Assembly: GCA_949283125.1 (NCBI GenBank)
Contig: CASDRK010000011.1
Location: 23,363-87,362, forward strand
Reading direction: 5' to 3'
Length of the DNA: 64,000 nt
Source: an uncultured Clostridia bacterium
Lineage (GTDB): Bacteria > Bacillota > Clostridia > Christensenellales > Borkfalkiaceae
Positions 8,191-21,753 of the stretch are shown here, in pieces. The notes beneath the pieces are model-generated. The model did no database searches. It worked only from the letters and a program-made list of their open reading frames with translations, and was not told the DNA's origin. The stretch's first letter is position 1; every line of letters begins with the position of its first letter. A program made the position numbers and the translations under genes.

Positions 8191-9497
8191 AAAGAAGCAT
8201 CAAAGCGCTTGCGGTACTCGTGCTCGCCGTGGGCGCTTTTTTCATATCGGGAGCATGGCTTTCGGGACTGCCGCGCGGCACTACGGTGGCCGGCGCGGAC
8301 GTGGGCGGAATGTCGCGCGCGGCGGCCGTCGCCGCCGCGCGCGTGCGCATACGCGAGAGACTTAAGGACAAAGAGCTGGTGATATGCGCCGGCGAACACA
8401 CCTATCGCTTCACGTATCCCGAATTTGATTTCACTGACGACCTGCCCGAGCTCGTCGCCTCCATACGCAGGCGCGGGGCATACTCTCCGCGCGTCTGCGT
8501 CAGGCTGAACGGCGCGCGGCGCATTGCCGAAAACATCTGCTCGCGGCTCGACCGCGCGTTGCGCGAACCCTGCGCCCGCTTTTTTAGGCAGGGTCTGCCG
8601 TTTGCGTACGACGAGGGCTGCGACGGGGCGCAAGGCGACCGCGCCGCGCTGCTGGCCGATATCCGCCGCTCGCTCAACGGCGACTTTAGCGCGGTGAAAG
8701 TCCGCGTCCGTCCGCTCGCGCGGAAAAAGTCGATCGGCGACGTAAAACGTGAAACGTCGCTGCTGTGTTCGTTCACCACCTATTTCGATGCGGACAACGC
8801 TCCGCGCGCGGCAAACATAGCGCTGGCCGCGTCAAAGCTGAACGGCAGCGTGCTGGAGCCCGGGCAGACCTTTTCCTTCAACGGCGCGGTCGGGCCGCGC
8901 ACCGAGGAGCGCGGCTTCGTCTCCGCAAAGATAATTTCGGGAGGGCGATTTACGGACGGCGTGGGCGGAGGGGTCTGTCAGGTCTCTACCACGCTCTACA
9001 ACGCCGCCCTGCTGTCGGGGCTGAAGATAGAGGAGTATCACCCCCATTCGCTCAGGGTGGGGTATGTGGCGCCCTCGCGCGACGCGATGGTCAGCGGAAC
9101 GAGCTGCGATCTCAAGTTTGCAAATTGCGGCCGTCTGCCCGTATATATCCGCGCCGAAGTCTGCGGCGGGGCCGTCACGTGCCGCATTTACGGCCTGCCG
9201 GACGGGGTGGAGAGGTCGTTCTTATCGCGCGTTACAGGCTCGCTGCCCCGCCCCGCCGACGTGGTGGAGGAGGGCGAGGAAGCCCTGCTTTCGCCGGGGT
9301 GCGAGGGTACTGTCAGCGAGGGCTATTTAGTGGAGGTCAAAGGCGGGGTGCGGCGCGAAAGGCTGGTGCGCAGGGACAGGTATGCCGGCGTCCCCGCCGT
9401 GCGGCGCGCGCCGCGCGGCGGGGACGCGCCGGCGGAAGACGGACAGTCCGGGCAAAAATCCCCTGGCGCCGCCGCCAAAAGTCAAGTAATTTTATAG
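8187..9497 (+). CDS. VanW-family protein (N-terminal membrane anchor); 3' end remodelled by the element insertion
   Basis: 436 aa. VanW-like core ..FSFNGAVGPRTEERGF...GGGVCQVSTTLYNAALLSGL.IEEYHPHS... TTG start overlaps the upstream stop. The last 7 codons come from the inserted element. Confidence 0.85.
   Translation: MKRSIKALAVLVLAVGAFFISGAWLSGLPRGTTVAGADVGGMSRAAAVAAARVRIRERLKDKELVICAGEHTYRFTYPEFDFTDDLPELVASIRRRGAYSPRVCVRLNGARRIAENICSRLDRALREPCARFFRQGLPFAYDEGCDGAQGDRAALLADIRRSLNGDFSAVKVRVRPLARKKSIGDVKRETSLLCSFTTYFDADNAPRAANIALAASKLNGSVLEPGQTFSFNGAVGPRTEERGFVSAKIISGGRFTDGVGGGVCQVSTTLYNAALLSGLKIEEYHPHSLRVGYVAPSRDAMVSGTSCDLKFANCGRLPVYIRAEVCGGAVTCRIYGLPDGVERSFLSRVTGSLPRPADVVEEGEEALLSPGCEGTVSEGYLVEVKGGVRRERLVRRDRYAGVPAVRRAPRGGDAPAEDGQSGQKSPGAAAKSQVIL
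9460..9477. repeat. Left copy of the 18-bp direct repeat CCCCTGGCGCCGCCGCCA (attL-like)
   Basis: Identical 18-mer at 21770-21787. It sits exactly at the GC-content break. Confidence 0.8.
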
Positions 9498-9578
9498 AAT
9501 TTTTTTAGAAATTCAAAAAAAATTTTTAGCTTGCGTTATAATCGGTATTGTATAAGTCTTTCGGGAAAGACTTATTAA

Positions 9579-9617
9579 CAAAAACGGGTACGACCTTACA
9601 GGGCATACCCGTTTTTA
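9579..9617. terminator. Bidirectional rho-independent terminator (AAAAACGGGTA...TACCCGTTTTT)
   Basis: 7-bp stem ACGGGTA/TACCCGT with an A-run upstream and a T-run downstream. It lies between vanW and the transposase gene. Confidence 0.55.
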
Positions 9618-9626
9618 TTACACGAC

Positions 9627-9648
9627 AAAAAGCCGCGCTTTGGCGGCT
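9627..9648 (-). terminator. Rho-independent terminator downstream of the transposase gene
   Basis: The minus strand reads AGCCGC-caaagc-GCGGCT followed by TTTTTG. Confidence 0.55.
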
Positions 9649-9658
9649 GTAAACATTT

Positions 9659-9676
9659 TTGAAAGTACACTTTCAA
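9659..9676. repeat. 18-bp palindrome TTGAAAGTACACTTTCAA, copy 1 of 3
   Basis: Perfect 8+8 inverted repeat with a 2-nt centre. The same motif recurs at 12809-12826 and 14678-14695. Confidence 0.9.
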
Positions 9677-9686
9677 AAAACTACTA

Positions 9687-10784
9687 TTAAAGAGAAGCAA
9701 CGGCAGTTGCGAACATTTCCGCAGAAGTGCCGAAGCCGAATATTTCACGAGGGTAAGCATTTACCCACCGCGCGACTTCCTGCACGCGCTTTTCGCTTAC
9801 CTTTGAAAAGTCCGTGCCTTTCGGGAGCAACCGCCTAATATCGCGGTTGATACGCTCGTTAGAGCCACGCTCGCACGAAGTGTACGGGTGACAGTAATAA
9901 ACCGCCGTACGTCTGCCGCTGTAAACGGAGCGTTCCAGCCCTGCGAAGTCCGAGAACTCCGAGCCGTTATCAACGGTAATGCTTTTGAACAGCGTACGAA
10001 ACTTTTTACCGTAACGCCGTTCGAGTTTATCAAGGTACTGCACGACCGTTGCCGCCTTTCGGTTCGGCATTTTCATGATAATTTCGTAGCGCGTCGCCCG
10101 CTCGGTCAACACCAAAAGCACGTTGCGGGTGTACTGCCGCCCGACAACGCAGTCCATTTCCCAATGCCCGAAATTACGGCGCAGGAGAATGTCGGCGGGA
10201 CGGCGTTCAATACTCGTACCCTTCGGCGGGCGTTTCGCCTGCGTTTTCTTGTAATGCTTTTTACGCTGTCCCACGGGCAAATGCTCGGAGCGGATATTCA
10301 TAAACAGCCCCTGCGCAATATAGCGGTACATTGTCGTTTTACTCACAACCGTTTTGCAGAGATTATCGCGCTTGATTTCACCCGCGACAGCGGCAGGGGA
10401 AATTTTATCAACGCAGACCCGCTTTTCAACGTAGCGTATAAAATCGTAGTCGTTGCCAACCTTTAAGGGCGCACCGTGTGCCGTTTTATTCAGCTGATAC
10501 TTTTCTTCCGCAACGTTCGAGCTGTAACCTTTTACAAACTTGTAATGCCGTTCGCCCCAATAGTCGGTATAACTGTACCGCTTGTATGTATATTCGCCGC
10601 GCTTCAATTCGTTATACACGGTCGCAAGGCATATGCCAAGCTGTTTTGCTATCTGTCGTTTGCTCAACCCTGCATTGTACAAAGCTTCCAACTGCAAACG
10701 CATATTCCAATCCACATTCTTCGTACCTTTGTTTTTCATTTCCGTTTGTTCCGTCCTTTTTTCCGTAGTGTCCGTAGTTTCCAT
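9687..10784 (-). CDS. IS30-family DDE transposase
   Basis: 365 aa. N-terminal HTH (..GLSKRQIAKQLGICLATVYNELKRG..) and the DDE triad context HWEMDCV ... ITVDNGSEF ... ERGSNERINRDIRR typical of IS30 transposases. Confidence 0.9.
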   Translation of the reverse strand: METTDTTEKRTEQTEMKNKGTKNVDWNMRLQLEALYNAGLSKRQIAKQLGICLATVYNELKRGEYTYKRYSYTDYWGERHYKFVKGYSSNVAEEKYQLNKTAHGAPLKVGNDYDFIRYVEKRVCVDKISPAAVAGEIKRDNLCKTVVSKTTMYRYIAQGLFMNIRSEHLPVGQRKKHYKKTQAKRPPKGTSIERRPADILLRRNFGHWEMDCVVGRQYTRNVLLVLTERATRYEIIMKMPNRKAATVVQYLDKLERRYGKKFRTLFKSITVDNGSEFSDFAGLERSVYSGRRTAVYYCHPYTSCERGSNERINRDIRRLLPKGTDFSKVSEKRVQEVARWVNAYPREIFGFGTSAEMFATAVASL

Positions 10785-10847
10785 AGTGTCCGATATGATA
10801 TTATACGCCGAAAAACGCCGCTAAAAACGCTTAAAATCGGCGTAGAG

Positions 10848-10917
10848 AGCACAACGCGCCACCTTGTTATAGACGAGCGGCGGCTTGCGCCGCCGTAACA
10901 AGGTGGCGCGTTGTGCT
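10848..10917. repeat. Nested perfect hairpin: 22-bp stem enclosing a 7-bp GC stem
   Basis: AGCACAACGCGCCACCTTGTTA (10848-10869) is the exact reverse complement of 10896-10917. The loop contains CGGCGGC-ttgc-GCCGCCG. Confidence 0.9.
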
Positions 10918-11114
10918 TGACCTGTTTTACCTGCCGTACGGGGCGATTTTTCGTGCCAACGGGGGCGCGGACAGGTCTCGCGCCCCCGTTTTATCGTCTT
11001 GCAAATGAACATTGCCGCATAAATGCGGCAAAAAAACACCCTGCGGGACATGCCGAAAAGCGCCGTATGTCAAGCCACAGGCGCAATAAAATGAACGATT
11101 GAGTTTTTACGCAA

Positions 11115-12245
11115 TCACGCAACCGACAAGGGGTTGCAGAGTAAGTCGGTAATCGACATTTGCTTGCTAAATCGGTGTCGCAGAATATCCCGCTCCCAAT
11201 TCACAACGTCGTCAAAGACAACGTATTTAAGCACAAAGTCGTTTGTCATCTCGGTTATAATGTCGTTTGCCGACAACTTCATGCAAATTTCCGTGGGTAT
11301 GCCACGGCTATAAACTATTCGTTCATTTGTCTTGCCTATGTATTTCAATATATAGTCCACGCTGTCGCCCGCTTCAAGTTGCGACTGCGTTATCTCCTCA
11401 AAATCGTTGCGCCCGTACCATTGCGCAAAGAAACTGTTTTCGTTCCTCGTCTGCATTTGCCCCTGCGCCGTGCTGTAATCGGTCTTTTCTTCGCACCTGC
11501 CGAGCATTTCACCCGCAGGGACATATAACAGACCGTGGAAGTGCAAACGCCCTGTTTCGGGCGCACGCTCGAATACCCCCATATACCGCCAGCCACGGCG
11601 GGTGTGGAGGTTTGAAAGGCAACGGCGCAATTTGCGCCTAAATGTTTCCTCGTCGTGCTTTTTATCGTCGTATGTAAAGGTTACGAAAAAATTCCAACGA
11701 TTGAGGTATGCCTTGCGGCGGAAACGCTTTTTGCGGTGGTGCAGATTGTTCAGCTTGCGCTTTACGCGCTCCGCAATATCCACCTTTGCGATCTCCTCTT
11801 CGGTAAACAGAGTGCGCAAGCCGTCATGGATATAGTCCGACATGGGCTTTTCCTTTTTCCTGTCGCGCAAGCCCTTATTATAGCCCTGCGTGAACAAATC
11901 GTCAAAGAGAATGTCAAAGACGGAGCGAGTGCCGCCAAAACCTTTATTCGACGATATATCAATGCGCATAGCGGCGGTGCGCTTGCCGCGCTCGTAGTCC
12001 CTGCGCTTATCGCGCATAAAGCGGTCATAAACGATTTCCTTTTGTTCGTCCGTAAGCTGTTTAGGACGTCTGCGGCGGTTAGATTTGCGGGCAGGCTTTA
12101 CCGCAGGGGCTTGCGCATGGCGGCAGGGCGTGGCTATCAGATGACGACCGTCATTATAGATTTTATAGGTTTTCGGCGTGTCGTCGAAAAAGGGAAATGG
12201 ACAACCCTGTAAGTCGTCCGATTGAATAAGATTTGCAACACCCAT
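11115..12245 (-). CDS. HUH-superfamily rolling-circle replication initiator (Rep)
   Basis: 376 aa. The three RCR motifs appear in order: FFVTFTYD (motif 1), RLHFHGLLYV (HUH, motif 2) and VDYILKYIGK (catalytic Tyr, motif 3). SD GAGGTGG upstream. Confidence 0.75.
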   Translation of the reverse strand: MGVANLIQSDDLQGCPFPFFDDTPKTYKIYNDGRHLIATPCRHAQAPAVKPARKSNRRRRPKQLTDEQKEIVYDRFMRDKRRDYERGKRTAAMRIDISSNKGFGGTRSVFDILFDDLFTQGYNKGLRDRKKEKPMSDYIHDGLRTLFTEEEIAKVDIAERVKRKLNNLHHRKKRFRRKAYLNRWNFFVTFTYDDKKHDEETFRRKLRRCLSNLHTRRGWRYMGVFERAPETGRLHFHGLLYVPAGEMLGRCEEKTDYSTAQGQMQTRNENSFFAQWYGRNDFEEITQSQLEAGDSVDYILKYIGKTNERIVYSRGIPTEICMKLSANDIITEMTNDFVLKYVVFDDVVNWERDILRHRFSKQMSITDLLCNPLSVA

Positions 12246-12327
12246 TTTACCACCTCAAAAATCAAATTTAATAAACACCGCCATGTGGAATAGCACCCCT
12301 GCGGGGAAATGTTATTAAGAAAAATAA

Positions 12328-12594
12328 TTATTTGCCTTGCCGCGCCCTACGTTCTGCCGCACAATCGCGCATAGCGCACATAAAGCCCTTTGCATATTGC
12401 ACACTGTTGCGCGCAGATTTACCCGACTGCGCAAGTCGCTTATTGTCGTCTATATCGCTCATCATCTCACGCTTACGCTTTTTGCTTGCCTTCGGGTACT
12501 CGCGGTACGCCTTAACACCGAAGCGGTAGCCATATGCAAATGGCGTTTTCTGTTCGCTGTTATATTTCAGTTTTTCATCTACCGAACGCTTCAT
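12328..12594 (-). CDS. Small basic hypothetical protein (88 aa)
   Basis: ORF translationally coupled (ATGA) to the upstream ORF. Lys/Arg-rich, with an N-terminal Y-x-S-E-Q-K..F-A-Y-G motif shared with two other element proteins. Confidence 0.5.
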   Translation of the reverse strand: MKRSVDEKLKYNSEQKTPFAYGYRFGVKAYREYPKASKKRKREMMSDIDDNKRLAQSGKSARNSVQYAKGFMCAMRDCAAERRARQGK

Positions 12595-12794
12595 ACCGCC
12601 ATAATCTCCCGTGCAACTTCTACGACCTCATCACCGCGAAGAGTAACACGGTAACGGTAGCCGCGAACCTTTACGCTGTGCGCCGTGTTGCCGTTATCAA
12701 GCGGAACGGAGCGCACAAGTTCTATATAGCGCCGCTGTGTCTGCACAGCACGCGCAAGCGTGCTTAAAAGGTGAAGGTATTGATATTGTGTCAT
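12591..12794 (-). CDS. Small hypothetical protein (67 aa from the internal ATG with SD AAAGGGGG)
   Basis: The ORF track gives 12591..12845. I prefer the ATG at 12794 because the 18-bp palindrome and the SD lie immediately upstream of it. Confidence 0.45.
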   Translation of the reverse strand: MTQYQYLHLLSTLARAVQTQRRYIELVRSVPLDNGNTAHSVKVRGYRYRVTLRGDEVVEVAREIMAV

Positions 12795-12808
12795 ATGTAA
12801 CCCCCTTT

Positions 12809-12826
12809 TTGAAAGTGTACTTTCAA
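12809..12826. repeat. 18-bp palindrome TTGAAAGTGTACTTTCAA, copy 2 of 3
   Basis: On the minus strand it is directly followed by AAAAGGGGGTTACATATG, the SD and start of the 67-aa ORF. Confidence 0.9.
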
Positions 12827-12833
12827 TTTTGAA

Positions 12834-12853
12834 TTGCAAAATCAATTTTGCAA
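12834..12853. promoter_or_regulatory. Second operator-like palindrome TTGCAAAAT-ca-ATTTTGCAA
   Basis: Perfect 9-bp arms. It lies between the 18-bp palindrome and a plus-strand consensus promoter. Confidence 0.6.
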
Positions 12854-12868
12854 ATAACCGAAAAATTG

Positions 12869-12897
12869 TTGACTTTATAGCCGCAAATACATATAAT
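12869..12897 (+). promoter_or_regulatory. Near-consensus sigma-A promoter TTGACT - 17 nt - TATAAT
   Basis: -35 at 12869-12874 and -10 at 12892-12897. It points away from all element ORFs, towards a terminator about 105 nt downstream. Confidence 0.55.
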
Positions 12898-12903
12898 ATC
12901 TAA

Positions 12904-13027
12904 CAGTGGTGAACGCTTCAAAGAACATTGAGGTACACCAAAGCACTGTATAATAAGTGATAGTAACTGCAAAACGGTCTATATGAAAAACAGTGGACAC
13001 AGCGGCAAAAGCCGCTGTTATTTTTTT
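12904..13027 (+). ncRNA. Candidate ~120-nt small RNA (promoter-to-terminator unit, no convincing ORF)
   Basis: Bounded by the consensus promoter and an intrinsic terminator. AACAGTGG occurs at both 12902-12909 and 12989-12996. The 3' end overlaps the stop region of the convergent 156-aa gene. Confidence 0.4.
12999..13027 (+). terminator. Rho-independent terminator ACAGCGGC-aaaa-GCCGCTGT plus TATTTTTTT
   Basis: 8-bp GC-rich stem followed by a T-run on the plus strand. Confidence 0.7.
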
Positions 13028-13488
13028 CTTAAAATATATTTAATTTTTGCCATATCATTATTAGACAAATGGGCAACATTAGTAATATATCTATCTACTT
13101 CATAAATTTCGGAACGGTCAATCCACGTACGCTTATTACTGATTTGCCGTTCATAATCATTATCAAGAATAATAGTCTTTGTAGTCCGCTTTTCAACGGG
13201 TGCAACAAGCACACGACCCTTTTTATCGGTATCAATAACGGCACAAACGCGAGGTTTAGAAATAGCGTTACCAAAATGATTATCATTTGTCATAATTAAA
13301 TCAGGGTCGTTAAATGAACGATTTTTAAGGCTATTTAAATATTCCAACCTACTTTCGGCATACTCTCTTCTACTTGCCGTCAAAACTTTACCGTCAGAAG
13401 TTTTACCCGTTTTAAGTATATTATTATAATGCTTAATCTTTTCATTAACTGAATAATAAACATAATTGGTCTTACCGTGTTTAAACAT
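13018..13488 (-). CDS. AT-rich cargo protein (156 aa); C-terminal ~95 aa resemble the MazF/PemK toxin fold by eye
   Basis: SD TGAGGTGG. ..DLIMTNDNHFGNAISKPRVCAVIDTDKKGRVLVAPV...WIDRSEIYEVDRYITNVAHLSNNDMAKIKYIL parallels EndoA/MazF ..GDVYFADL..GVRPVLVIQND...IVAAIT...ILLEQIRTIDKQRL.DKIGHLDDEMMDKVDEAL (from memory). It has the lowest GC in the element. Confidence 0.55.
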   Translation of the reverse strand: MFKHGKTNYVYYSVNEKIKHYNNILKTGKTSDGKVLTASRREYAESRLEYLNSLKNRSFNDPDLIMTNDNHFGNAISKPRVCAVIDTDKKGRVLVAPVEKRTTKTIILDNDYERQISNKRTWIDRSEIYEVDRYITNVAHLSNNDMAKIKYILRKK

Positions 13489-13605
13489 ATAACCACCTCA
13501 TTATTCTAATTTTAATGCCTGTCGGAGCTTTACCGCCCCGACAGGCTTTTATATATCACCCCTGCGGGGAGTAATACCCGTTCGGGAATGACCGTTAAAG
13601 AAAGA

Positions 13606-13851
13606 CTACTGCCCGTCTTTGGCGTTTTGTTTTGCCTTTAATTTTTCCCTTTTGCGCACCGCCCGTTGATACCGCTTGTCCTCGCGGTCAAGCCTGCGGA
13701 ACTGCCGTTTCATATTCTTGAATATGTACGCCAAAATCTTTTTGTTGTACTTTTCAGGCACAAAATCGGCGGTGTCGAGCGTTTGCGCAAAAGTGGCATA
13801 ATACGTTTCAAGGCAGGTGTTAATCAGCTTGTTTTTGTTGTAATTTATCAT
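13606..13851 (-). CDS. Small hypothetical protein (81 aa) with a basic C-terminus
   Basis: ORF start overlaps the stop of the Zot-like gene (ATGA coupling). Confidence 0.5.
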   Translation of the reverse strand: MINYNKNKLINTCLETYYATFAQTLDTADFVPEKYNKKILAYIFKNMKRQFRRLDREDKRYQRAVRKREKLKAKQNAKDGQ

Positions 13852-14666
13852 GCCGCTTTACCTCGCGTATAAAAGCCGTCGGGTAGTTCGTCGTCCATAG
13901 TCTGCAAATACCTTACATAGCCGTCTATCGTGCAGTCGTTCGGTTCGGCTTGCATATAATCGTAATCGCTGTGCAGATGACCGTCGTAAAACTTCGGCTT
14001 GCAATTTTGGCTGTCGTAACAGGCAAACACGTTGTAATCGGCTTTGACGACCTCTTCCGTGTAGCATTCCTTGTCCTTTTTGCCGCTCTGCATATAGCGG
14101 TCAAAAAGACTACTGTTATCTATGCGGCGTATCAGCCATTTAAGAGCTTTAACGCGCCCGTAGCCGTCGTATTTGAATTGCAGGTTTACAATCTCAATGA
14201 ACTGCGCAAGCTCGCGCACGTTCACGTCTATGAGCATAGGACGTTGAGTATCGAGAAACACGTCTAAATCTAAATGCCCGTGTTGCTCGTACCAACGCGA
14301 TTGCCAATCGGGAAAATAGCGCGACATACGGCTGTTAAGATATTTTTGCGCTTCGGTTATACAGATACACTCGTGCGGCAAATTGAAATGCGTTTTTACA
14401 AAATCGTTTGCATAACCTAAACGGTAGGGATTTATGCGGCGGGAAAGTCGAGGACTATACCCGAATTTGTGCATTACAATATCGTAATTTGCCGATACGC
14501 AATGCATGGGCACGGTCTGTATGCCGTCAAAGCCCTGTTGCATTTTCGCCAATATTTCCCGCCGCATAGCGGTATTCCGTTGTTTGTCAAACGCCGCCAT
14601 GCTTGCTATATGCGTTAAAAAACAGGTCTTGCCCGTTCGCGGCGGGGCAAATATTATCGTTATCAT
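13848..14666 (-). CDS. Zot-like (inovirus pI-type) P-loop NTPase without a transmembrane segment
   Basis: 272 aa. Walker A FAPPRTGKT and Walker B-like ICITEAQKY, then ..EQHGHLDLDVFLDTQRPMLIDVNVRELAQ.., which mirrors the Zot-family HRH.G.D(I/V)..(I/L)TQ...(I/L)D core. Confidence 0.7.
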   Translation of the reverse strand: MITIIFAPPRTGKTCFLTHIASMAAFDKQRNTAMRREILAKMQQGFDGIQTVPMHCVSANYDIVMHKFGYSPRLSRRINPYRLGYANDFVKTHFNLPHECICITEAQKYLNSRMSRYFPDWQSRWYEQHGHLDLDVFLDTQRPMLIDVNVRELAQFIEIVNLQFKYDGYGRVKALKWLIRRIDNSSLFDRYMQSGKKDKECYTEEVVKADYNVFACYDSQNCKPKFYDGHLHSDYDYMQAEPNDCTIDGYVRYLQTMDDELPDGFYTRGKAA

Positions 14667-14677
14667 AAACCGCCTTT

Positions 14678-14695
14678 TTGAAAGTGCACTTTCAA
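14678..14695. repeat. 18-bp palindrome TTGAAAGTGCACTTTCAA, copy 3 of 3
   Basis: On the minus strand it is directly followed by AAAAGGCGGTTTATG, the SD and start of the Zot-like gene. It abuts the stop of the 707-aa gene. Confidence 0.9.
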
Positions 14696-14696
14696 T

Positions 14697-16820
14697 TTAT
14701 CCGCCCGCAATGAGCGAATAGCACCAGCCCGCAAACGTGTTTATAAAGAACACGTCAAGGACTATCGTCAAGGCGAGGAACAAAAGCATTATCCACCAAG
14801 GCAGACCGCAAGCGGTACACAGCACAAGGCGAAGGAGCAACAGCACAACTATTTCCGCAAGCACAACAATCACATACGCCCACCAAGGAATATCGCTATC
14901 AATATCGACGGACGGGGTGATTGCATTGACAATGTCAATGGGCGAAGATACGGCGGGGATAACGTAATATTTGCCGTCGTCATTAAATGTCAGCTGTATC
15001 ACGTCAAAGTCCAAAAATACGCTCTCCCAAGCGCGGTAGGCTTGCCCGCTTATTTTGGTATCTCCGCCTAAAAAGCCTGTGCCAAGTTCCCAAATCTCAA
15101 CGGGAGCAGAATAGTAGTCAGTTGTTGCGAAGTGGAACAGCACGACAACTTTTTCTTCGTCGTCGGGTATGGACGTATCAACGGTAATTGCTTCGTCGTA
15201 ATAATCGCGCAGAGCCTGTACATCACCCGAATTTATCAAGAGCCGTTCGCTCACCTCTGCCGAAGTGCCTTTCAAATCGTCCTCTTCAATTATCTCAATG
15301 GGCGCGACCGTGCGGCTCTCTTCTTCGGGAATATCGCCAAAAATAGTGTCCCAAAGTCCCCAATTCCGCAAATTGTCCCAAAAGTCGGGGGCAGTTTCCT
15401 GCCAGCTCGAAAGGTGTTGCAAGTCTAAATCTGCGTCGAAATCGTAATAGCTGTAACCTTGCTGTATCTTGCCGTATTTGCTGTCAACCTTGCGGTAATC
15501 GTCTATGTCGGCGGCGAACAAATCAGCGCTGATAGTGCCGTCTTTAATAGGGAGCGCACCGCCGTCATAACTTTTATCATAGTTTTTTATGTACTCGTAC
15601 AGTTGATTGCTCTCAACACCGCCAATGCTGACGATATCGGCGTATGGATCGTATTCCGCGATATTATCTACCTGAAAAAGATAATATAAAGCATTTGCGC
15701 GAGGGGAAAGATAAGTATGATAAATATTCCACCCCCATGTTGCACCTTGAATACCAACACCCATACCGCTTGAATAAAAATCTTGAATAAGAGAATATCC
15801 AATATCTTTATTAATTTCAGGAACGCCCAAAGAACTTAATTGAGTATTAGTCTGTTCACCAAGCCAAGACTTTGCCGCAGAAAAAAACTTATCGTTGCTC
15901 GTTACGATTATATCTTTGGTCTTGTATTCGTACCATTCGGCTTTAATGCGTTGCAGTTCGCCGTAGGTATCGAACAGGCGTTTCGGCACAGCAAAATACA
16001 CACTATCAAGCTGATTTTGATAACCTGCGCCCTTGCTCGAAGTTTCGGAGCGGTAAAAGGTATGTCTTACGTCAAGTTCCACGGCTTCGGCTTGTCCCGT
16101 GCTCAAACAGGTAAACGGAAATTTTTCACTGTCGCCGTAGCCCTCGGCATAGCCGCTGAACTGATAATACTTGTTCACAAGGTATTCATGCGCGTTTGTC
16201 GCACTTCCACCTATCTCGAACAACTCAATGCCCGATATGTGGTAATATCTGTTGCCCGTCTTTTGCTCGTGCTCGCGCTCGGCATTGAGTATGATATTTT
16301 CTTCGTCCACAATGCGGAATTTCAAGAAGAGATTTGCATACTCGCCGCCGCTTGAATTGCAAAATTTAAGACTGAATTTTTGGTAGTCCTTGACGTCACC
16401 CACATTGCCTTGTTCGTTATCGTAATAAAAATCAGTGGAAATCTGAATTTTATTTTGTTTCAAAAATACGGCATAATCCAAAAGAGCAGGATTATACACA
16501 TAAACGTACAGCGCATAATTGCCGAAGCCGTTTTCATACTGCGAATAACAATACTCAACAAAAGTTATCATTCGTGTAGTTCCGTGCGCGTTCTTTGGAT
16601 AATCAGCTATATCAAACGGCTCGCCGTCTATGGTGGAGCTTTGCAAATCGTCAAGGGCGTTGGTGTCGTCATACTTCAATTCTTTGCCAGTGTCGGCATA
16701 AACATAGGGGTCGGAAACTTGTCCGCAAATTATACTCGACAATAAACATAAGATGACAATTATATACGGCAAGAACGTTCGCATTTTTGCTTTAAACTTT
16801 TTCATTAAAATTGCACGCAT
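14697..16820 (-). CDS. Large secreted protein with C-terminal multi-helix membrane anchor (candidate adsorption/minor virion protein)
   Basis: 707 aa. N-terminal signal-like segment (..FLPYIIVILCLLSSIICGQ..) and a C-terminal ~65 aa hydrophobic region (..WWAYVIVVLAEIVVLLLL...WWIMLLFLALTIVLDVFFI..). SD AAGGTGAGG. It sits just upstream of the Zot-like gene, as gIII/gVI do in inoviruses. Confidence 0.6.
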   Translation of the reverse strand: MRAILMKKFKAKMRTFLPYIIVILCLLSSIICGQVSDPYVYADTGKELKYDDTNALDDLQSSTIDGEPFDIADYPKNAHGTTRMITFVEYCYSQYENGFGNYALYVYVYNPALLDYAVFLKQNKIQISTDFYYDNEQGNVGDVKDYQKFSLKFCNSSGGEYANLFLKFRIVDEENIILNAEREHEQKTGNRYYHISGIELFEIGGSATNAHEYLVNKYYQFSGYAEGYGDSEKFPFTCLSTGQAEAVELDVRHTFYRSETSSKGAGYQNQLDSVYFAVPKRLFDTYGELQRIKAEWYEYKTKDIIVTSNDKFFSAAKSWLGEQTNTQLSSLGVPEINKDIGYSLIQDFYSSGMGVGIQGATWGWNIYHTYLSPRANALYYLFQVDNIAEYDPYADIVSIGGVESNQLYEYIKNYDKSYDGGALPIKDGTISADLFAADIDDYRKVDSKYGKIQQGYSYYDFDADLDLQHLSSWQETAPDFWDNLRNWGLWDTIFGDIPEEESRTVAPIEIIEEDDLKGTSAEVSERLLINSGDVQALRDYYDEAITVDTSIPDDEEKVVVLFHFATTDYYSAPVEIWELGTGFLGGDTKISGQAYRAWESVFLDFDVIQLTFNDDGKYYVIPAVSSPIDIVNAITPSVDIDSDIPWWAYVIVVLAEIVVLLLLRLVLCTACGLPWWIMLLFLALTIVLDVFFINTFAGWCYSLIAGG

Positions 16821-16839
16821 AACCTCACCTTAATACTAC

Positions 16840-17421
16840 TCAAAAGAAAAGGTTAGAAGGTGTTACTGAAAAATCATAAACCATAAACCAAAGATTTACC
16901 GAGCTCTTATCAGATGTTATGGATATTCCAAAATAGCGATAACTGTCGTTTGAATTATCTACAATCTCAATATCACCGCCATATTTTTGCTCGACGAGAG
17001 TTTCAACCGAAAAATCAAACGGTATATAAAGTTCAAACCCGTCAGCATTACGCTTAATATCAAAATATTGAGTGTAATCATTCAAACTATCAACGTCACC
17101 ATAAAACCAATAAAGTTCGTCATTATATTTAAACGTAAAATCATTGGCGGGATTGGATGTGATGGTAACAGAATAATTTACATCATTCCCGATAAGCGAT
17201 TTAACAGAAAAATTACCTTTCTTACCTCTAACTAATTGAATATTGCCGTCTTCGGTATTCGAATAATAACGCTCTCCGTTATACTCAACATAAAACGTTA
17301 CACCGCTTTCGCGCAGAGCGAAATATGCTATGCCAACGGCAATACCCAAAATAACAAGCGCCACAACCAAATACAACAATATCTTTCCAAAAACACTGGC
17401 TACACCGCTACGATCGCCCAT
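16840..17421 (-). CDS. Membrane-anchored protein (193 aa), beta-rich ectodomain
   Basis: N-terminal TM ..ILLYLVVALVILGIAVGIAYFAL.. and SD GAGGTG. Confidence 0.55.
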   Translation of the reverse strand: MGDRSGVASVFGKILLYLVVALVILGIAVGIAYFALRESGVTFYVEYNGERYYSNTEDGNIQLVRGKKGNFSVKSLIGNDVNYSVTITSNPANDFTFKYNDELYWFYGDVDSLNDYTQYFDIKRNADGFELYIPFDFSVETLVEQKYGGDIEIVDNSNDSYRYFGISITSDKSSVNLWFMVYDFSVTPSNLFF

Positions 17422-17435
17422 AAATTCACCTCAAA

Positions 17436-18674
17436 TCAAAAGATTATAGTATCCTTATTCAAGCTAACGTTTGTAACAGGCACGATAAACGAAGATACAC
17501 CTGATACATCTGTCAGATATATATACTTCGTCTCCGAAAATTTCTCCGAAGTATCTTCATTAGTCACGTTAACGCTTATTTTGAAAAACGCCGTCTCCTC
17601 AAACCCTTCTACAATGCGACTATCTGTAAAAAGTTCGCGGACTTCTTCCAATACTGCTTTTTTCTGCGTAGCGCTAAGCGAAGAAATGCCGCCGACGCAA
17701 TACTTTGATACAAAATCTTCAAACGATGTGTTGAAGGTACAGATGCGGTTATAATAGGTATCATAGGTAGGGTAGGTGTTTTCATTGACAGCGCCGGTGG
17801 AGTCGATATAATTGCCGCCGGAAATCAACCAACCGTGACCATAGCTCAACTCTCTTTCATCATACCCCACGCCGTAATCGTCGCACATACTCGAGAAGTC
17901 TACTTCGTATTGCGTTGATACATTTACTGATATAGCGGGAACAATTGTGCCGGCAGAACGAAAAACCTGATAAGAAATAGAGCTATCCGCCCCCGTATCT
18001 TTAAGGACTATGTCAGAACCGTTAATAACCACATCGGTTATTTTGCAACGATAATCTATGCGGCATGTATCGGTAATGGAAGGATTATTGACGGAAGATA
18101 CCGTAAGAGTGATAGGACAACCGAAAGCCTGACTGCATGATACCGTACAAGATAAGGTATCACTTGAAGGGCTTATCTGTATAAAATCCGCTTCGGTCAC
18201 GCCGATACCTGCAAGCTCGGACGTAGCATAATCGCCGTCACCGTCATTGTACCAAGCTTCTTCCGTATAATACGGATTGCCGTCTTCATTCTCGGCGGTC
18301 TCATTCCACGAAACAGACCATACCAAATCCTTAATGGTCGCTTCTTCGGGATTGACCGTTGCCGTGACGACTTGCGCATTCTCCGCCATAGGCGATATAC
18401 CGTATTCGGCATATTTCTCCACAGGAATATTCATGCTCGTAAGCGCAATCGCGCCGCCCGGCTGACTTTCGCCTATCACCATGCTGCCCTCGTCAACAGG
18501 CTGTTTGCCTTCTGCGGACTGTTCAATCTGTTCGCCTTTGCCCCAACTGTTAAACCATGTGGCAATATCGCTGTTCGTGAACCAGCTCGAACCTACGCCA
18601 CACGCAATCACAATAGCGAGCGCAAGCACGATTGCAATAACCGCAACTATGGCGTTCTTTGTTGATTTTCTCAT
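17436..18674 (-). CDS. Membrane-anchored protein (412 aa), large ectodomain
   Basis: N-terminal TM ..AIVAVIAIVLALAIVIACGV.. and SD AAGGAG. No recognisable family. Confidence 0.6.
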   Translation of the reverse strand: MRKSTKNAIVAVIAIVLALAIVIACGVGSSWFTNSDIATWFNSWGKGEQIEQSAEGKQPVDEGSMVIGESQPGGAIALTSMNIPVEKYAEYGISPMAENAQVVTATVNPEEATIKDLVWSVSWNETAENEDGNPYYTEEAWYNDGDGDYATSELAGIGVTEADFIQISPSSDTLSCTVSCSQAFGCPITLTVSSVNNPSITDTCRIDYRCKITDVVINGSDIVLKDTGADSSISYQVFRSAGTIVPAISVNVSTQYEVDFSSMCDDYGVGYDERELSYGHGWLISGGNYIDSTGAVNENTYPTYDTYYNRICTFNTSFEDFVSKYCVGGISSLSATQKKAVLEEVRELFTDSRIVEGFEETAFFKISVNVTNEDTSEKFSETKYIYLTDVSGVSSFIVPVTNVSLNKDTIIF

Positions 18675-18696
18675 TATTGTTTATCTCCTTGAAAAT

Positions 18697-18894
18697 TTAA
18701 TATTTTTTAGCTTTTTTACAGAGTAAAGCATACTCATAATCGTGGTGTTCTTTCATTGCACGTTCAACGGCTTTTAAATCACCGCGCCGTGCCGCCGTGT
18801 CTAACTTCTGTTCACTACGCTCGTACATACCCTGCAACTTCGCCGCAGAGGTAGTACGGGCAAGCTTCTTTTGTTTTCGCGTGAACCAAATCAT
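18697..18894 (-). CDS. Small hypothetical protein (65 aa)
   Basis: ORF in the co-oriented array; charged and helical-looking. Confidence 0.4.
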   Translation of the reverse strand: MIWFTRKQKKLARTTSAAKLQGMYERSEQKLDTAARRGDLKAVERAMKEHHDYEYALLCKKAKKY

Positions 18895-18896
18895 AG

Positions 18897-19217
18897 TTAA
18901 AACTTCACCGACTTGCTACGCATAGAACGGCGAACGCCTTTATTTTCATACGAACGAATTGTATTACGAACATAGCCGCGCGCTTCGTTCTTATATAAAT
19001 CGGCAAGCGTATCGCGCGCGGACTGATAACCGTATGTAACATCAACACACCCCGAACCCATACCGCGATAACCCTTACCGTCCTTACGGCGTTTACCTGT
19101 CAACTGTACCTGATACCCACCGTATGCGCCCGAAACCCGTAATTCATTGCCCGTGCGTAAGCAATATTTTTCGTTCAGCCTATCGACTTCGGCTTGTAAA
19201 TCTCTTTTTGTAATCAT
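18897..19217 (-). CDS. Small hypothetical protein (106 aa)
   Basis: SD GAGGTG 6 nt upstream of the ATG. Confidence 0.5.
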   Translation of the reverse strand: MITKRDLQAEVDRLNEKYCLRTGNELRVSGAYGGYQVQLTGKRRKDGKGYRGMGSGCVDVTYGYQSARDTLADLYKNEARGYVRNTIRSYENKGVRRSMRSKSVKF

Positions 19218-19226
19218 AACAACACC

Positions 19227-19469
19227 TCAACATTTCAGTTTGCCGACCACAACGCCGTTCCCGTCCACGACAAGGCACATATCGCCTTTGCCGCTTGTCT
19301 TTTTCTTCCTACCTGTCGCCTTGCCGCAGACGGAGTTCACGCCGTTGCGGAAAGACTGTTTGCTTTTGCTATCGGGACAATTTACGCGCTTGCCCGCTTT
19401 TGCCGCGGCATACGCACGCCCCATATGGTACGCTTTGCGCTCTTTGGCTGAATAACTTCTCTTTGCCAT
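19227..19469 (-). CDS. Small basic hypothetical protein (80 aa from MAKRSYSAKERKAY..)
   Basis: The ORF track gives 19227..19487. The ATG at 19469 avoids overlap with the upstream ORF. It carries the Y-S-x-K-E-R-K-A-Y-x-x-G motif. Confidence 0.45.
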   Translation of the reverse strand: MAKRSYSAKERKAYHMGRAYAAAKAGKRVNCPDSKSKQSFRNGVNSVCGKATGRKKKTSGKGDMCLVVDGNGVVVGKLKC

Positions 19470-19474
19470 ATGAA

Positions 19475-19684
19475 TTAAACCTCGCAATTTTTTATTTTTT
19501 GTTTTACTTCGTCATAGCTTTCGGCTGCAAATATGCCCGTGCCTTTGCCCTTTTCGTCAAGCCCCGTTTCCACAAATGTTCCGTCTTTGTCCTCAATCAC
19601 GCCCGTTACAATTCGTACAGGTACCATACACCGTTCACGCGCCTTGTTGTTACTCCACATTGTAAGTTCCAAAAACCCTTTCAT
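19475..19684 (-). CDS. Small hypothetical protein (69 aa)
   Basis: SD GAGGTG upstream. Confidence 0.45.
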   Translation of the reverse strand: MKGFLELTMWSNNKARERCMVPVRIVTGVIEDKDGTFVETGLDEKGKGTGIFAAESYDEVKQKIKNCEV

Positions 19685-19717
19685 TTTTTACACCTCGTTT
19701 CCTTATTGTCCTTATTT

Positions 19718-19750
19718 AACACCCTTGCAGAGAGCAACACCCTTACAGGG
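19718..19750. repeat. Two 13-bp direct repeats AACACCCTT(G/A)CAG with 18-bp period
   Basis: Copies at 19718-19730 and 19736-19748, in the spacer upstream of the 69-aa ORF. Confidence 0.8.
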
Positions 19751-19830
19751 AATTTTACTGTTAAGAAATGATATATAGCCGTCTGCCCGCCTGCGGAGTT
19801 TTCCACAGACGGGTTGACGGTATCTATCTT

Positions 19831-20298
19831 TTATGCCGCCGTTTCGGGGTCTGCCTCAACGGTACGTATCTGTTTATTGACCATATTCATAAGCATAGTG
19901 AGCAGGTCGACGTCGCTTTTGCCCGTCGGCTTGACTTCGGCGTGCCATACAACGCCGTTTTCGTCTACGGTGTTGACTGTGTAAACGGTGGTATGCTGTT
20001 TCTTGCCGTTGAACTCCGTTACCTTGTCGATAATATCGAGTTCGGCGGCGGGGCTTACGTCAAAGACCAAATCGAGAGGGACATAACCGCCCTTATCCTT
20101 CGGCGAGAAATCAACAGCAATACGACGACCGCGCAATGTGCCGCAGAGCTTATACTTAAAGTAAAGTCTGCCGTCATTCGTCACGTACTGATTGCCGCGC
20201 TTATCGAGCACGGGTTCACGGCGTATTACAAAATTGCCGTTCCTCATTTCCGCTACCTGTTCCATAGTTCCGTTCGTTGCCTTCTTTTCAGTTGCCAT
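19831..20298 (-). CDS. Hypothetical protein (155 aa), beta-rich; possible ssDNA-binding role is speculative
   Basis: SD AAAGGAG. No motif recognised. Confidence 0.5.
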   Translation of the reverse strand: MATEKKATNGTMEQVAEMRNGNFVIRREPVLDKRGNQYVTNDGRLYFKYKLCGTLRGRRIAVDFSPKDKGGYVPLDLVFDVSPAAELDIIDKVTEFNGKKQHTTVYTVNTVDENGVVWHAEVKPTGKSDVDLLTMLMNMVNKQIRTVEADPETAA

Positions 20299-20501
20299 AA
20301 TTTTAATAATCTCCTTTGGCAGTCGGTTGCCAGCCGTCCGATTTTTGCCCCCTTACGGGGAGTGGTGGGGACTGCAAGACGCCACCCTTGCACGAACGCT
20401 TGCCGCGCTCCTTTGGGCTATGTCCCCATAATGGCGGGGTGCAGAGGTCACCCCGCTTTACAGGAGGAATGCCCGATTGCTCGGGCTATGGAAAGCCGTC
20501 T
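20299..20501 (-). other. 200-nt GC-rich, highly structured non-coding spacer
   Basis: Several stems, for example GCGGGGTG-cagagg-TCACCCCGC (about 20433-20456), GCCCGA-ttgc-TCGGGC (20471-20486) and CCCCCTTACGGGG (20348-20360). No plausible ORF. Confidence 0.6.
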
Positions 20502-20741
20502 TTATTCTGTCGCCGCTTCAAGATTTTCAATAGCTTCACTAAGGCTATCAAGGGCATAGTCCATATTATTTATGTTATCGCCCGCAATTTCGCCGCGTTC
20601 GCTTTCCTGTATGCCCGCGGGCATATTATCGTAATATTCCTGTTCTTCGTCGCGCAACTGCTCAATGGCAGTTTGTATATCTTGTAACTGTTCAATCAGT
20701 TTGTAAAGTTCATTACGCCGTGTTTTATTCATTTTCGCCAC
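20502..20741 (-). CDS. Small acidic coiled-coil protein (79 aa)
   Basis: SD AAAGGACGGTGG. Heptad-like ..ELYKLIEQLQDIQTAIEQLRDEEQEYYD... Confidence 0.5.
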   Translation of the reverse strand: MAKMNKTRRNELYKLIEQLQDIQTAIEQLRDEEQEYYDNMPAGIQESERGEIAGDNINNMDYALDSLSEAIENLEAATE

Positions 20742-20747
20742 CGTCCT

Positions 20748-21371
20748 TTATTCTTCCTCAACCATAGGAGCATTGCAGTCCATACACATAATGTTTACGC
20801 GCTTTGTCGCCCTGACCGATTGCCCGCATATGGGGCAAATATACTTGCGCGTGCTCGTGTTCTTCGTTATCTGACATTTCATAACGGGTAAGCGATAAAT
20901 GACCGTAGGCGGGTTTGCCGCCGCAAATTCGGCTATCATTGCCGCCGTTTCGTCCGTCAATGTCGTATGCGACCAGCCGATTTTTGCCACGCACTCAACC
21001 TTTAAGCCATGTTCTTCGGCTATCTTCTTGAATAGCTTGTTGTGGTAGTTACCCGACCGCGACGTGTCTTTCATTTCGTGAACCGTCGCAAACTGATGGC
21101 ACATTTCGTGTATCAGTGTTGCCGATATCTCACCAATAGGGCGGTGAAGCTGCTGTGCCGTCATATTCAGTTCGTGTTCGCCGTCGTCGTCGGTGTTTTC
21201 ACGCCAAACTTTGCCCTGCGACCACCAGCCATTTGTTTTATTGCGCTCGTCCGTCTGCACAGTGATTACAGGCTTTACAAGCTCCCCGCCGAACAGTTCG
21301 GCGTTTATATGGTCGTATAACTTGCCGAGATATGCGACCGTCTCAATGTACTTGTCCGTTCCGTTTAACAT
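20748..21371 (-). CDS. SprT-like zinc metalloprotease with C-terminal zinc ribbon
   Basis: 207 aa. HEMCH (HExxH) is embedded in ..ISATLIHEMCHQF.. and the C-terminus has CPICG...CMDCN. Confidence 0.7.
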   Translation of the reverse strand: MLNGTDKYIETVAYLGKLYDHINAELFGGELVKPVITVQTDERNKTNGWWSQGKVWRENTDDDGEHELNMTAQQLHRPIGEISATLIHEMCHQFATVHEMKDTSRSGNYHNKLFKKIAEEHGLKVECVAKIGWSHTTLTDETAAMIAEFAAANPPTVIYRLPVMKCQITKNTSTRKYICPICGQSVRATKRVNIMCMDCNAPMVEEE

Positions 21372-21437
21372 TGTTTCGATACCTCACTTTTGTTTATTTG
21401 CCCGTATAGCCGTTAGCACAGCTTTTAATTAAATTGC

Positions 21438-21668
21438 TTAACGACAAACTACTCTCAAATACTCTTTCGCGTCGTCAATACTCTCATGCTCGACAATGTC
21501 ATAATCAGGGGCTTGAATAGTGATAACATTATTCTCAAACCCAGATTGAACCTCAAGCAATAAATTTGCTTTAAGTAAATCTGCCGCAACTCCGAAGAAT
21601 GCAAGAATTTTACCGTTGTCGTCCACAGCTACACGCACATTTGTGTTCCTGTTAATTTTAAATTTCAT
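21438..21668 (-). CDS. Small hypothetical protein (76 aa), first ORF at the right end of the element
   Basis: SD AAAGGAG upstream. Confidence 0.45.
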   Translation of the reverse strand: MKFKINRNTNVRVAVDDNGKILAFFGVAADLLKANLLLEVQSGFENNVITIQAPDYDIVEHESIDDAKEYLRVVCR

Positions 21669-21713
21669 TTCCGTTTCTCCTTTGCGTAATGCCGCCGCCC
21701 GTATTAGAACAAT

Positions 21714-21753
21714 AAAAAAACGGTATAGAGCAGTTCCTTTACTGTTCTATACC
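21714..21753 (-). terminator. Hairpin plus T7 run on the minus strand at the right end of the element
   Basis: The minus strand reads GGTATAGAACAGT-aaagga-ACTGCTCTATACC followed by GTTTTTTT (one mismatch in a 13-bp stem). Confidence 0.5.

Follow-up and report, generated by a model that had tools for sequence, protein, structure and literature searches.

A candidate transposable, inovirus-like prophage with an IS30-family transposase in gut Clostridia

Core genes and boundaries of the element

The window analyzed here is a stretch of 64,000 nucleotides (nt) from an uncultured Clostridia bacterium of the Christensenellales (assembly GCA_949283125.1, contig CASDRK010000011.1, positions 23,363 to 87,362). 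Between approximately 9.5 and 21.8 kb it contains an island of low GC content (40–50% compared to approximately 60% in the host), in which an integrated element of about 12.3 kb was located at positions 9478 to 21769. The element carries 18 genes, all on the minus strand, and is colinear with the circular metagenome contig L002. The gene order starts with a 76-amino acid (aa) protein and a SprT-like protease, followed by a 155-aa protein, small soluble proteins, three anchored envelope proteins, a Zot/pI-like ATPase, a rolling-circle initiator (Rep) and an IS30-family transposase. A first-pass annotation had placed the locus at positions 11115 to 18674. The features described for this Rep/ATPase region were found again, whereas its extent had to be corrected, since the region is only the middle part of the element and both the transposase and a target-site duplication had been overlooked.

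The ATPase (13848–14666, minus strand) is a stand-alone Zot/pI-like morphogenesis protein of 272 aa and the most conserved gene product of the element. Its sequence begins directly with the Walker A motif (APPRTGKT, residues 7–14), followed by Walker B (CICITEAQ, 100–107) and the motif HGHLDLDVFLDTQ (129–141), which agrees with the Walker motifs and the HGH-type core that had been read from the sequence before. The protein matched PHROG 197 ("Zot-like toxin") with an E-value of 1.1e-8, and a profile of its family matched PDB entry 2r2a with 6.9e-10; the match to HerA was weak (0.85). Entry 2r2a, itself labelled "Uncharacterized protein", is presumably the N-terminal domain of Zot from Neisseria meningitidis. 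The sole tblastn match in the phage collection was the annotated Zot of bajarodino virus 12 (29.5% identity, 8e-20). No hydrophobic 19-mer (Kyte-Doolittle mean of at least 1.6) was found in the ATPase. The absence of a transmembrane (TM) segment had been noted as a peculiarity of this locus; it is a trait of the whole family, as 110 of 112 full-length relatives (236–313 aa) have none and a hydrophobic stretch occurs in two only. The start of an 81-aa soluble basic protein (13606–13851, minus strand) overlaps the ATPase stop codon; both genes occur together in 82 of 88 loci and form a conserved core. The pI/Zot-type ATPase, a marker of the Tubulavirales, is the sole marker conserved across inoviruses (Roux 2019, PMC6813254), and a stand-alone Zot domain has already been described in Firmicutes-targeted gut inoviruses (PMC8530359).

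The Rep (11115–12245, minus strand, 376 aa) is an HUH rolling-circle initiator. It matched PF23343 (REP_ORF2-G2P) with an E-value of 4.3e-11 and 43.4 bits (cutoff 27.8) as well as PHROG 3419 (phrog_3419, rolling-circle initiation). All three rolling-circle motifs claimed for it are present, namely FFVTFTY (186–192), HFHGLLY (235–241) and YILKYIGK (298–305). Between the Rep and the transposase lies an intergenic region of 330 nt (10785–11114, read on the minus strand) that holds three strong hairpins, one of them with a perfect stem of 22 bp (10848–10917). Folded as single-stranded DNA (ssDNA), it reaches −93 kcal/mol (z = −8.25), and none of 100 shuffled sequences was as stable. The intergenic hairpin is kept in L002, L003, L005 and L006, and the region may serve as origin or packaging signal, as would fit an ssDNA replicon.

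The 155-aa protein (19831–20298, minus strand) is conserved in 40 loci and is encoded at the position of the inovirus ssDNA-binding protein. Its AlphaFold2 model, a beta-barrel with a predicted local distance difference test (pLDDT) score of 84, gave best Foldseek hits in PDB and BFVD to coronavirus nsp9, an RstB-like protein and the ssDNA-binding protein of phage OH3, all with E-values above 0.01, and the Pfam and PDB profile searches were negative. These results give a hint only of a role as ssDNA-binding protein. A 57-kb record from human faeces deposited as "Bacteriophage sp." (MT835493.1) contains, at 30790–38769, a related Rep (32%) and a relative of the 155-aa protein (37%), with no ATPase match at E-values up to 1e-3; it may be a bacterial contig with a divergent member of the family.

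The last gene encodes an IS30-family DDE transposase of 365 aa (9687–10784, minus strand), which matched NF033563 with an E-value of 1.7e-67 (228 bits, cutoff 80) and the Pfam domains rve and HTH_38. A transposase adjoins the Rep in syntenic arrangement in L002, L003, L005, L006, L009, L011–L013, L044, L084, L085, L088 and L091–L093, and the transposases syntenic with Rep across many lineages share 64–92% identity. The protein is regarded as the integrase of the element. A separate IS30 insertion beside phage genes was ruled out, as the conserved ends enclose the whole element.

In relatives without the IS30 transposase, other candidate integration genes were found beside the same core. The positions concerned are 2142–3347 and 12531–13091 in L016 and 3532–4665 in L001; the genes are opposite-strand open reading frames (ORFs) of 401 and 186 aa in L016 and an annotated tyrosine integrase in bajarodino virus 12. 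The integration module thus appears to be exchangeable between relatives.

On both sides of the element stands the direct repeat CCCCTGGCGCCGCCGCCA, 18 bp long and identical in the two copies. The left copy (9460–9477) is host DNA in the 3' end of a VanW-like ORF (8187–9497), and the right copy (21770–21787) is followed by the promoter and the gene of plsX (PF02504, 7e-98). Further host genes on the flanks are recF-like, PHP and VanW-like, and the right repeat precedes plsX, smc and ftsY. The repeat is a target-site duplication of host DNA from transposition, because it is absent from the circle junctions described below and because relatives have different duplications at different sites. The complete integrated relatives L012, L044 and L085 lie at other sites, each with its own 16-bp duplication, often palindromic, so that the four complete copies occupy four sites with duplications of 15 to 18 bp. 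Judged from these relatives, the true duplication probably comprises 15–16 bp within the 18-bp repeat. A site-specific attachment core was ruled out for the same reasons, the 18-mer being missing from every circle junction and the duplications differing by site. No tRNA gene was found in the window, which leaves tRNA-targeted integration without support, and an Rfam search matched no family.

Both termini carry one half of a promoter-like sequence. The transposase-side terminus (9478–9520, minus strand; ...ATAAAATTACTTGACTTTT) contains an outward-facing −35 hexamer TTGACT at 9480–9485 and is conserved in 17 related loci in addition to the window. The other terminus (21730–21769, minus strand; GGTATAGTTTTACAATGGTATAGAACAG) contains a −10 hexamer TACAAT at 21754–21759, upstream of the first gene. 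In the best register, 20 of 37 positions match between the two ends as inverted repeats, and both ends share TATAGAA 17–19 nt from the tip. The insertion replaced the C-terminus of the VanW-like host protein, whose last six residues and stop codon (KSQVIL*) are now derived from the element; the uninterrupted gene would end with ...PGAAAILGGQNNCLLACYMI*, continuing at 21770–21834.

Circular forms and the predicted junction promoter

A search for the circular form had been proposed with the first-pass annotation, and closed junctions of close relatives were found in four metagenome contigs. Contig L002, whose ATPase is 91–92% identical to that of the window, has an exact terminal overlap of 762 bp, corresponding to a circular unit of 11,835 bp, and joins positions equivalent to 9475 and 21773 of the window. 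The same junction was found again in a second sample (L003). L091 has a terminal overlap of 55 bp, which is typical of circular assembly, at 60x coverage, with the same protein on seven contigs, and contig L093 is cut exactly at the junction. In total, the four contigs represent three distinct closed junctions, in which the same two termini (...CTTGACTTTT and GTAAAGTTTTACAATGGTATAGAACAG) lie 5 nt apart, separated by GGGCG, GGATT or GGATG.

Across the L002 junction the two half-sites form a promoter match, TTGACT and TAGAAT with a spacer of 17 bp, which agrees with the consensus at 10 of 12 positions. In L091 and L093 the −10 hexamers are TATAAT and TACAAT, respectively, each 17 bp from TTGACT. 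The promoter match reads into the first gene and hence into the whole operon, and it is split in the integrated copy. Since insertion splits the promoter, we infer that circularization turns the element on and that the integrated form is silent. IS30 minicircles are known to form a strong junction promoter (Pjunc) by a copy-out-paste-in route without precise excision (PMC9333248), and IS1630, a member of the IS30 family, generates duplications of 16–26 bp of inverted repeats (PMC3317919). The duplication length found here fits IS1630 and not the 2–3 bp usual for the IS30 family.

Envelope proteins, the small hydrophobic protein and further genes

The genes preceding the ATPase encode three large membrane-anchored proteins, as had been recognized before. 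The 707-aa protein (14697–16820, minus strand) has a signal-like N-terminus, a beta-rich ectodomain and a C-terminal hairpin of two TM helices, predicted by AlphaFold2 at residues 646–671 and 675–704. It has relatives in 1255 clusters and no Pfam match, and a comparison of the modeled fold with PDB gave no match with an E-value below 0.001. The 193-aa protein (16840–17421, minus strand) is hypervariable and has an N-terminal TM anchor. The 412-aa protein (17436–18674, minus strand) consists of an N-terminal anchor followed by a conserved SWFTN...WGKG stretch and a hypervariable remainder, and is a candidate adsorption protein. An assignment of the latter as a lipoprotein was rejected in favor of an N-terminal anchor: a VIAC lipobox is present and its cysteine is not conserved in the homologues. 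A hydrophobicity scan of every stop-to-stop frame identified these three proteins as the sole membrane proteins of the element.

Window and L002 share 86–94% DNA identity outside positions 14893–18509 and are unalignable inside this region (2055–5531 in L002). The exchanged stretch codes for the ectodomain of the 707-aa protein as well as the 193-aa and 412-aa proteins, which show 32–42% protein identity to L002. In L009, the 707-aa protein is 90% identical to that of the window, compared to 31% for the 193-aa protein. The envelope genes are therefore swapped independently of each other, and the hypervariable stretch has the pattern that is expected of receptor-binding proteins.

A small coat protein with a single TM segment is a defining structural feature of inoviruses. 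When all six frames were scanned from stop to stop, the coding strand showed no small hydrophobic ORF that stands free, and there was no short (30–90 aa) single-TM structural protein, as expected for the Tubulavirales, in any frame of the window. The only small hydrophobic ORF on the coding strand comprises 63 aa (13095–13286) and is nested out of frame in a gene for a 156-aa protein. It also occurs in L009, in which the 156-aa gene is identical, and is missing from L002, L004 and L005; it lies in AT-rich DNA. It was ruled out as a coat protein since its conservation stops at L009. The first-pass annotation had already seen no coat gene by eye and had taken this as an oddity of the locus. The absence was confirmed, and it can now be explained at the level of the family.

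In many relatives, a conserved hydrophobic protein of 52 aa with two helices is encoded after the gene of the 155-aa type, which is the canonical position of the coat gene. A six-frame search with a hidden Markov model (HMM) detected it in 34 loci and nowhere in the window. For 72 loci with enough upstream context the architecture could be counted: 34 have the 52-aa protein only, 32 have only a large protein with a C-terminal TM hairpin, which is the form found in the window, none has both and six have neither. This mutual exclusion is highly significant (Fisher's exact test, p = 1e-14). In the clustering of the ATPases, loci of either form are mixed with those of the other; the cassette has therefore been exchanged repeatedly. 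Judged from this distribution, the C-terminus of the 707-aa protein probably stands in for the small hydrophobic protein, be it as coat or as anchor of the ATPase. The role proposed for the 707-aa protein is to partner the ATPase in the membrane and to substitute for the small protein.

In the lineages with the 52-aa protein (L017–L022, L026–L037, L048, L049, L059, L063, L070, L074, L078 and L079), the gene before the ATPase encodes an N-terminally anchored protein of 500–1100 aa, often with repeats of the type WTDGENIYYS, which may form a beta-propeller receptor-binding domain. A further uncalled ORF was observed in L004 (10935–11147), L005 (2582–2791) and L006. Depending on the start codon it comprises 57–67 aa, with one TM helix and a strongly basic RRERKRRK tail, and it could encode a coat-like protein or a small membrane toxin. 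It is located in a segment of approximately 300 nt that is missing from the window, where positions 12827–12830 are contiguous.

The remaining genes encode predicted soluble or accessory proteins. The 76-aa protein (21438–21668, minus strand) is the first gene product past the junction promoter. The second gene of the operon (20748–21371, minus strand) encodes a SprT-like zinc metalloprotease (PF10263, 4.7e-7; phrog_6361, 1e-30) with the motif HEMCH at 88–92 and a C-terminal zinc ribbon, and the third a coiled-coil protein of 79 aa (20502–20741, minus strand; phrog_4068, 3e-20). The latter gene is an accessory insert, because its segment (20458–20747) is missing from the otherwise colinear L002. 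Both proteins had been described correctly in the first-pass annotation. Its suggestion that they point to the leading region of a conjugative element found no support, as both match phage protein families and neither relaxase, coupling protein nor VirB4 was found in the 18 ORFs searched against Pfam and PHROGs or in the nine ORFs of the element that were run against NCBIfam. At 18697–19684 the minus strand encodes four further small proteins (65, 106, 86 and 69 aa, the 86-aa one very basic), which are soluble and free of TM segments.

Downstream of the ATPase, the 156-aa protein (13018–13488, minus strand) shows a sub-threshold resemblance to PemK/MazF (E-value of 0.0015) and occupies an accessory, variable slot. 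The slot 3' of the ATPase and the 81-aa gene contains different genes among relatives, including a clear MazF-like gene in L073, and looks like an accessory or toxin slot. It is followed by genes for a 68-aa protein (12591–12797, minus strand; a 67-aa gene in L002), with a likely start codon ATG at 12797 just after a palindrome and a ribosome-binding site, and for an 88-aa protein (12328–12594, minus strand) that is conserved in close relatives. The 18-nt palindrome TTGAAAGTRCACTTTCAA, perfect or near-perfect, occurs at three sites, all within the element, with none expected by chance: after the transposase stop codon (9659–9676), and directly upstream of the ribosome-binding sites that serve the 68-aa gene (12809–12826) and the ATPase gene (14678–14695). 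It is kept in L002, L004, L005 and L006 and could be an operator or an mRNA hairpin.

Interpretation, alternatives and implications for gut Clostridia

The closest described viruses are the Clade-1 inoviruses of gut Firmicutes (PMC8530359) and the candidate inovirus families of monoderm hosts (PMC6813254). They share with the element gut Clostridia as hosts, a short Zot-only ATPase, an HUH Rep and a compact genome on one strand that is missed by standard virus callers and databases. In contrast, they were chosen for an inovirus major coat protein and have a size of 5.6–9.4 kb, whereas the element comprises 12.3 kb with no small TM protein and differs further by its three large anchored proteins and the IS30-type integration. 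In addition, an N-terminal TM domain in pI is typical of monoderm-host inoviruses (Roux supplement), and none is present in the ATPase of the window.

Bajarodino virus 12 (PQ006185.1; Inoviridae, circular, 9,828 nt, from rodent faeces) has a layout as found here, with an N-terminally anchored protein of approximately 350 aa, a protein with signal peptide and TM hairpin, a TM-less Zot of approximately 270 aa and no small TM ORF. The N-terminal sequence YSDVLDDLRKDEAF of its hairpin protein matches the 707-aa protein, whereas the C-terminal LWWLVSLPF matches relatives of 470–490 aa and not the window. It differs by its tyrosine integrase and repressor module, has no annotated Rep, and its other proteins are not detectably similar. 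The position of Rep after the morphogenesis module, which had been pointed out as unusual, is correct for the locus and not exceptional, since the order Zot, Rep, transposase also occurs in bajarodino virus 74, a canonical virus with TM proteins of 53, 69 and 96 aa.

IS30-type transposases are also encoded by Spiroplasma plectroviruses and by bajarodino viruses 13 and 74, and were described for 157 inovirus sequences (Roux 2019 supplement, PMC6813254). The genus Vespertiliovirus (Plectroviridae; SpV1-R8A2B) likewise combines Tubulavirales-type genes with an IS30-family transposase in a host lineage derived from Firmicutes; PF23343 is named after ORF2 of a Spiroplasma phage, and the packaged genome of the Spiroplasma plectrovirus has been described as a circular transposition intermediate (PMC8295915). 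These viruses carry the transposase instead of a Rep, whereas the element has both. Furthermore, they infect wall-less hosts, are 4.5–8.3 kb in size with very low GC content and have an assigned small coat protein (CoaB); the hosts here are Christensenellales and other Clostridia.

The mobility of the element is similar to that of IS30 and IS1630 with regard to the NF033563 transposase, the circle with abutted ends and a short spacer, the −35 and −10 hexamers on opposite ends (PMC9333248) and the long duplications (16–26 bp in IS1630) of palindromic targets (PMC3317919). It differs from IS30 by 11 kb of virus-like cargo, by a promoter that faces the phage genes first and the transposase last, and by its weak terminal repeats. 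IME1 of Dehalococcoides, which is integrated and episomal and comprises probable non-lytic viruses recognized mainly by a pI-like ATPase (bioRxiv 10.64898/2026.09.15.751708), can be likened by its description. Its size is 21–28 kb, it is probably double-stranded, it is confined to Chloroflexota and it has small TM proteins. Apparently new features of the element are the combination of Rep and transposase in one unit, the junction promoter facing a whole virus-like operon, the size of 12.3 kb and the replacement of the small hydrophobic protein by a hairpin on a large hypervariable protein.

Taken together, the element is likely a functional transposable prophage, related to inoviruses and plectroviruses, of a new sub-lineage with a Christensenellales-like gut Clostridia host. 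The proposal of a divergent Gram-positive inovirus lineage with non-canonical layout is thus supported in its general direction by the phage-type Rep, the Zot/pI relative, bajarodino virus 12 and the circles of close relatives. Of the features of Tubulavirales, the element has the ATPase and both alternative replication genes, a rolling-circle Rep and a transposase. It was not filed as a canonical inovirus, because the small coat protein and the TM segment expected in pI are both absent.

In the proposed life cycle, the transposase would follow the copy-out-paste-in route known from IS30 and produce a circular copy of the element whose ends abut, and the junction would assemble a sigma-70 promoter (TTGACT, 17 bp, TAnAAT) reading into the whole operon. 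Rep would replicate the circle by the rolling-circle mechanism, probably from the hairpin region between Rep and transposase, and the 155-aa protein may coat the single strand. The soluble ATPase would dock from the cytoplasm onto the TM hairpin at the C-terminus of the 707-aa protein, a hairpin that in this sub-lineage would take over the role of the small hydrophobic structural protein, and drive extrusion of the DNA across the membrane, while the hypervariable ectodomains of the 412-, 193- and 707-aa proteins would act in adsorption. In a new cell, the circle would be pasted into palindromic targets, resulting in a duplication of approximately 16 bp.

Several observations weigh against this interpretation. 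The evidence consists of circular assemblies and genes, and the circles may be nothing but double-stranded transposition intermediates. A major coat protein is not recognizable in the element, and the ATPase scored below the threshold of the Pfam Zot family (PF05707; 16.5 bits compared to 20.3). The substitution by the hairpin relies on distribution and topology: homology between the 52-aa protein and the hairpin was not detected (hmmsearch E-value of 0.59, equal to the reversed control; hhalign probability of 24%), and the 52-aa protein, which has no basic C-terminus, may be an anchor of the ATPase and not a coat. The model of the 707-aa protein reaches a pLDDT of 65, which is only moderate, and resembles no known fold; for the 155-aa protein, none of the structural matches to ssDNA-binding proteins was significant. 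The terminal inverted repeats are weak, with agreement at 20 of 37 positions, the junction promoter is known as a consensus match, and the transposase gene lies 11 kb from it, past terminator-like hairpins, which is unlike IS30.

The missing coat protein can be accommodated in different ways. In an unlikely alternative, the virus forms no filament, and the circle would leave the cell inside a pleomorphic particle bounded by a membrane, as in plasmaviruses or pleolipoviruses, studded with the 412-, 193- and 707-aa proteins, with basic soluble proteins condensing the DNA and the soluble ATPase acting in budding or packaging. The absence of a small coat protein, the large, anchored, spike-like topology of all membrane proteins, the soluble ATPase and the very basic protein of approximately 80 aa that precedes the envelope genes in many loci would suit such a particle, and archaeal viruses that bud likewise have ATPases of the pI-like type (bioRxiv 10.64898/2026.09.15.751708). 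On the other hand, none of 50,697 phage records matched when the 707- and 412-aa proteins were searched by tblastn, so that no homology to plasmaviruses or pleolipoviruses was detected, half of the family has small hydrophobic proteins of the filamentous-phage type on the same ATPase backbone, the set of Rep, ATPase and transposase fits plectro- and inoviruses, and budding is harder from a host with a wall. It is improbable that the element is an ordinary inovirus prophage in which the gene of a small major coat protein escaped notice, for example as a short or overlapping ORF. Small hydrophobic ORFs are present at the canonical position in about half of the relatives, and both the 57–67-aa ORF with its RRERKRRK tail in the siblings L004, L005 and L006 and the nested 63-aa ORF of the window could be cited in its favor. 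However, the scan of all frames gave no free-standing candidate, the HMM of the 52-aa protein found none in the 64 kb, the sibling segment is absent from the contiguous positions 12827–12830, the nested ORF lies in AT-rich DNA and recurs in L009 only, and the same absence is seen in 32 loci and in bajarodino virus 12.

Two further explanations do without a functional virus. It is unlikely that the element is a large IS30-type transposon or integrative element that replicates as a rolling-circle plasmid and whose surface proteins serve the host or a cell-to-cell transfer without virions. Transposon-style ends, the target duplication, the circles and the lack of a recognizable capsid would be in line with this, as would the near-absence from IMG/VR (two relatives in 2.9 million contigs) and the naming of the proteins as hypothetical in all sources. 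However, the most conserved gene encodes a Zot/pI-type ATPase, a hallmark of filamentous-phage morphogenesis, the Rep is of the phage ORF2/G2P type, and no relaxase, coupling protein, VirB4 or partition gene was found in the scanned ORFs. In addition, a distant relative, bajarodino virus 12, was deposited as a complete circular genome of the Inoviridae, gut Firmicutes inoviruses are known to escape virus callers (PMC8530359), and the hypervariable ectodomains suggest receptor recognition. Least plausible, with hardly any weight given to it, is a decayed prophage remnant next to an unrelated IS30 insertion: an IS30-family gene does adjoin phage-like genes and a coat gene is absent, but the synteny of transposase and Rep extends over many lineages with 64–92% identity, the duplication and the conserved termini lie around the full 12.3 kb and not around the transposase gene alone, and the circles hold the whole element, in which every ORF is intact and the gene order is colinear with that of the circular forms.

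Beyond the interpretation as a transposable prophage, a bolder variant has an outside chance. The sub-lineage of 32 loci and bajarodino virus 12 may build no pVIII-type filament, and the circle, as intermediate of transposition and replication, might exit in a particle whose only membrane-derived parts are the large anchored proteins, with the 707-aa hairpin and the ATPase as export machine. If true, the particle would be the bacterial equivalent of pleomorphic viruses that bud, or else a filament whose coat is of a new kind, and a transposon junction promoter would turn on the entire expression program.

The ATPase family comprises more than 800 clusters at 90% identity, all named "hypothetical protein" in their sources, and a search of 1.84 billion representatives at 50% identity gave 199 matches with E-values up to 1e-10. 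Relatives were found in 99 species-representative genomes, mostly of Christensenellales or other gut Clostridia, including the cultured Pumilibacter muris CLA-AA-M08 (L016), P. intestinalis CLA-AA-M10 (L023) and Anaerocaecibacter muris CLA-AA-M11 (L061). The two Pumilibacter copies are of the hairpin form and have no IS30 transposase, and the copy in A. muris looks degraded. A scan of IMG/VR for close relatives found nothing, and the profile scan detected the two relatives mentioned above. The literature search turned up neither a paper on "bajarodino" viruses nor one dealing with Christensenellales inoviruses.

The family is thus very common in animal and human gut Clostridia, yet barely present in virus catalogues. 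Current inovirus detection demands a small single-TM protein and would reject the half of the family that has none, which suggests that catalogues of gut viromes and prophages miss such elements systematically. The cultured carriers make the predictions directly testable. The strict either/or of the 52-aa protein and the hairpin is a natural experiment on the minimal membrane requirement of a Zot-type ATPase, and a promoter that is split and re-formed by transposase-driven circularization would provide a latency switch that does not need a repressor.

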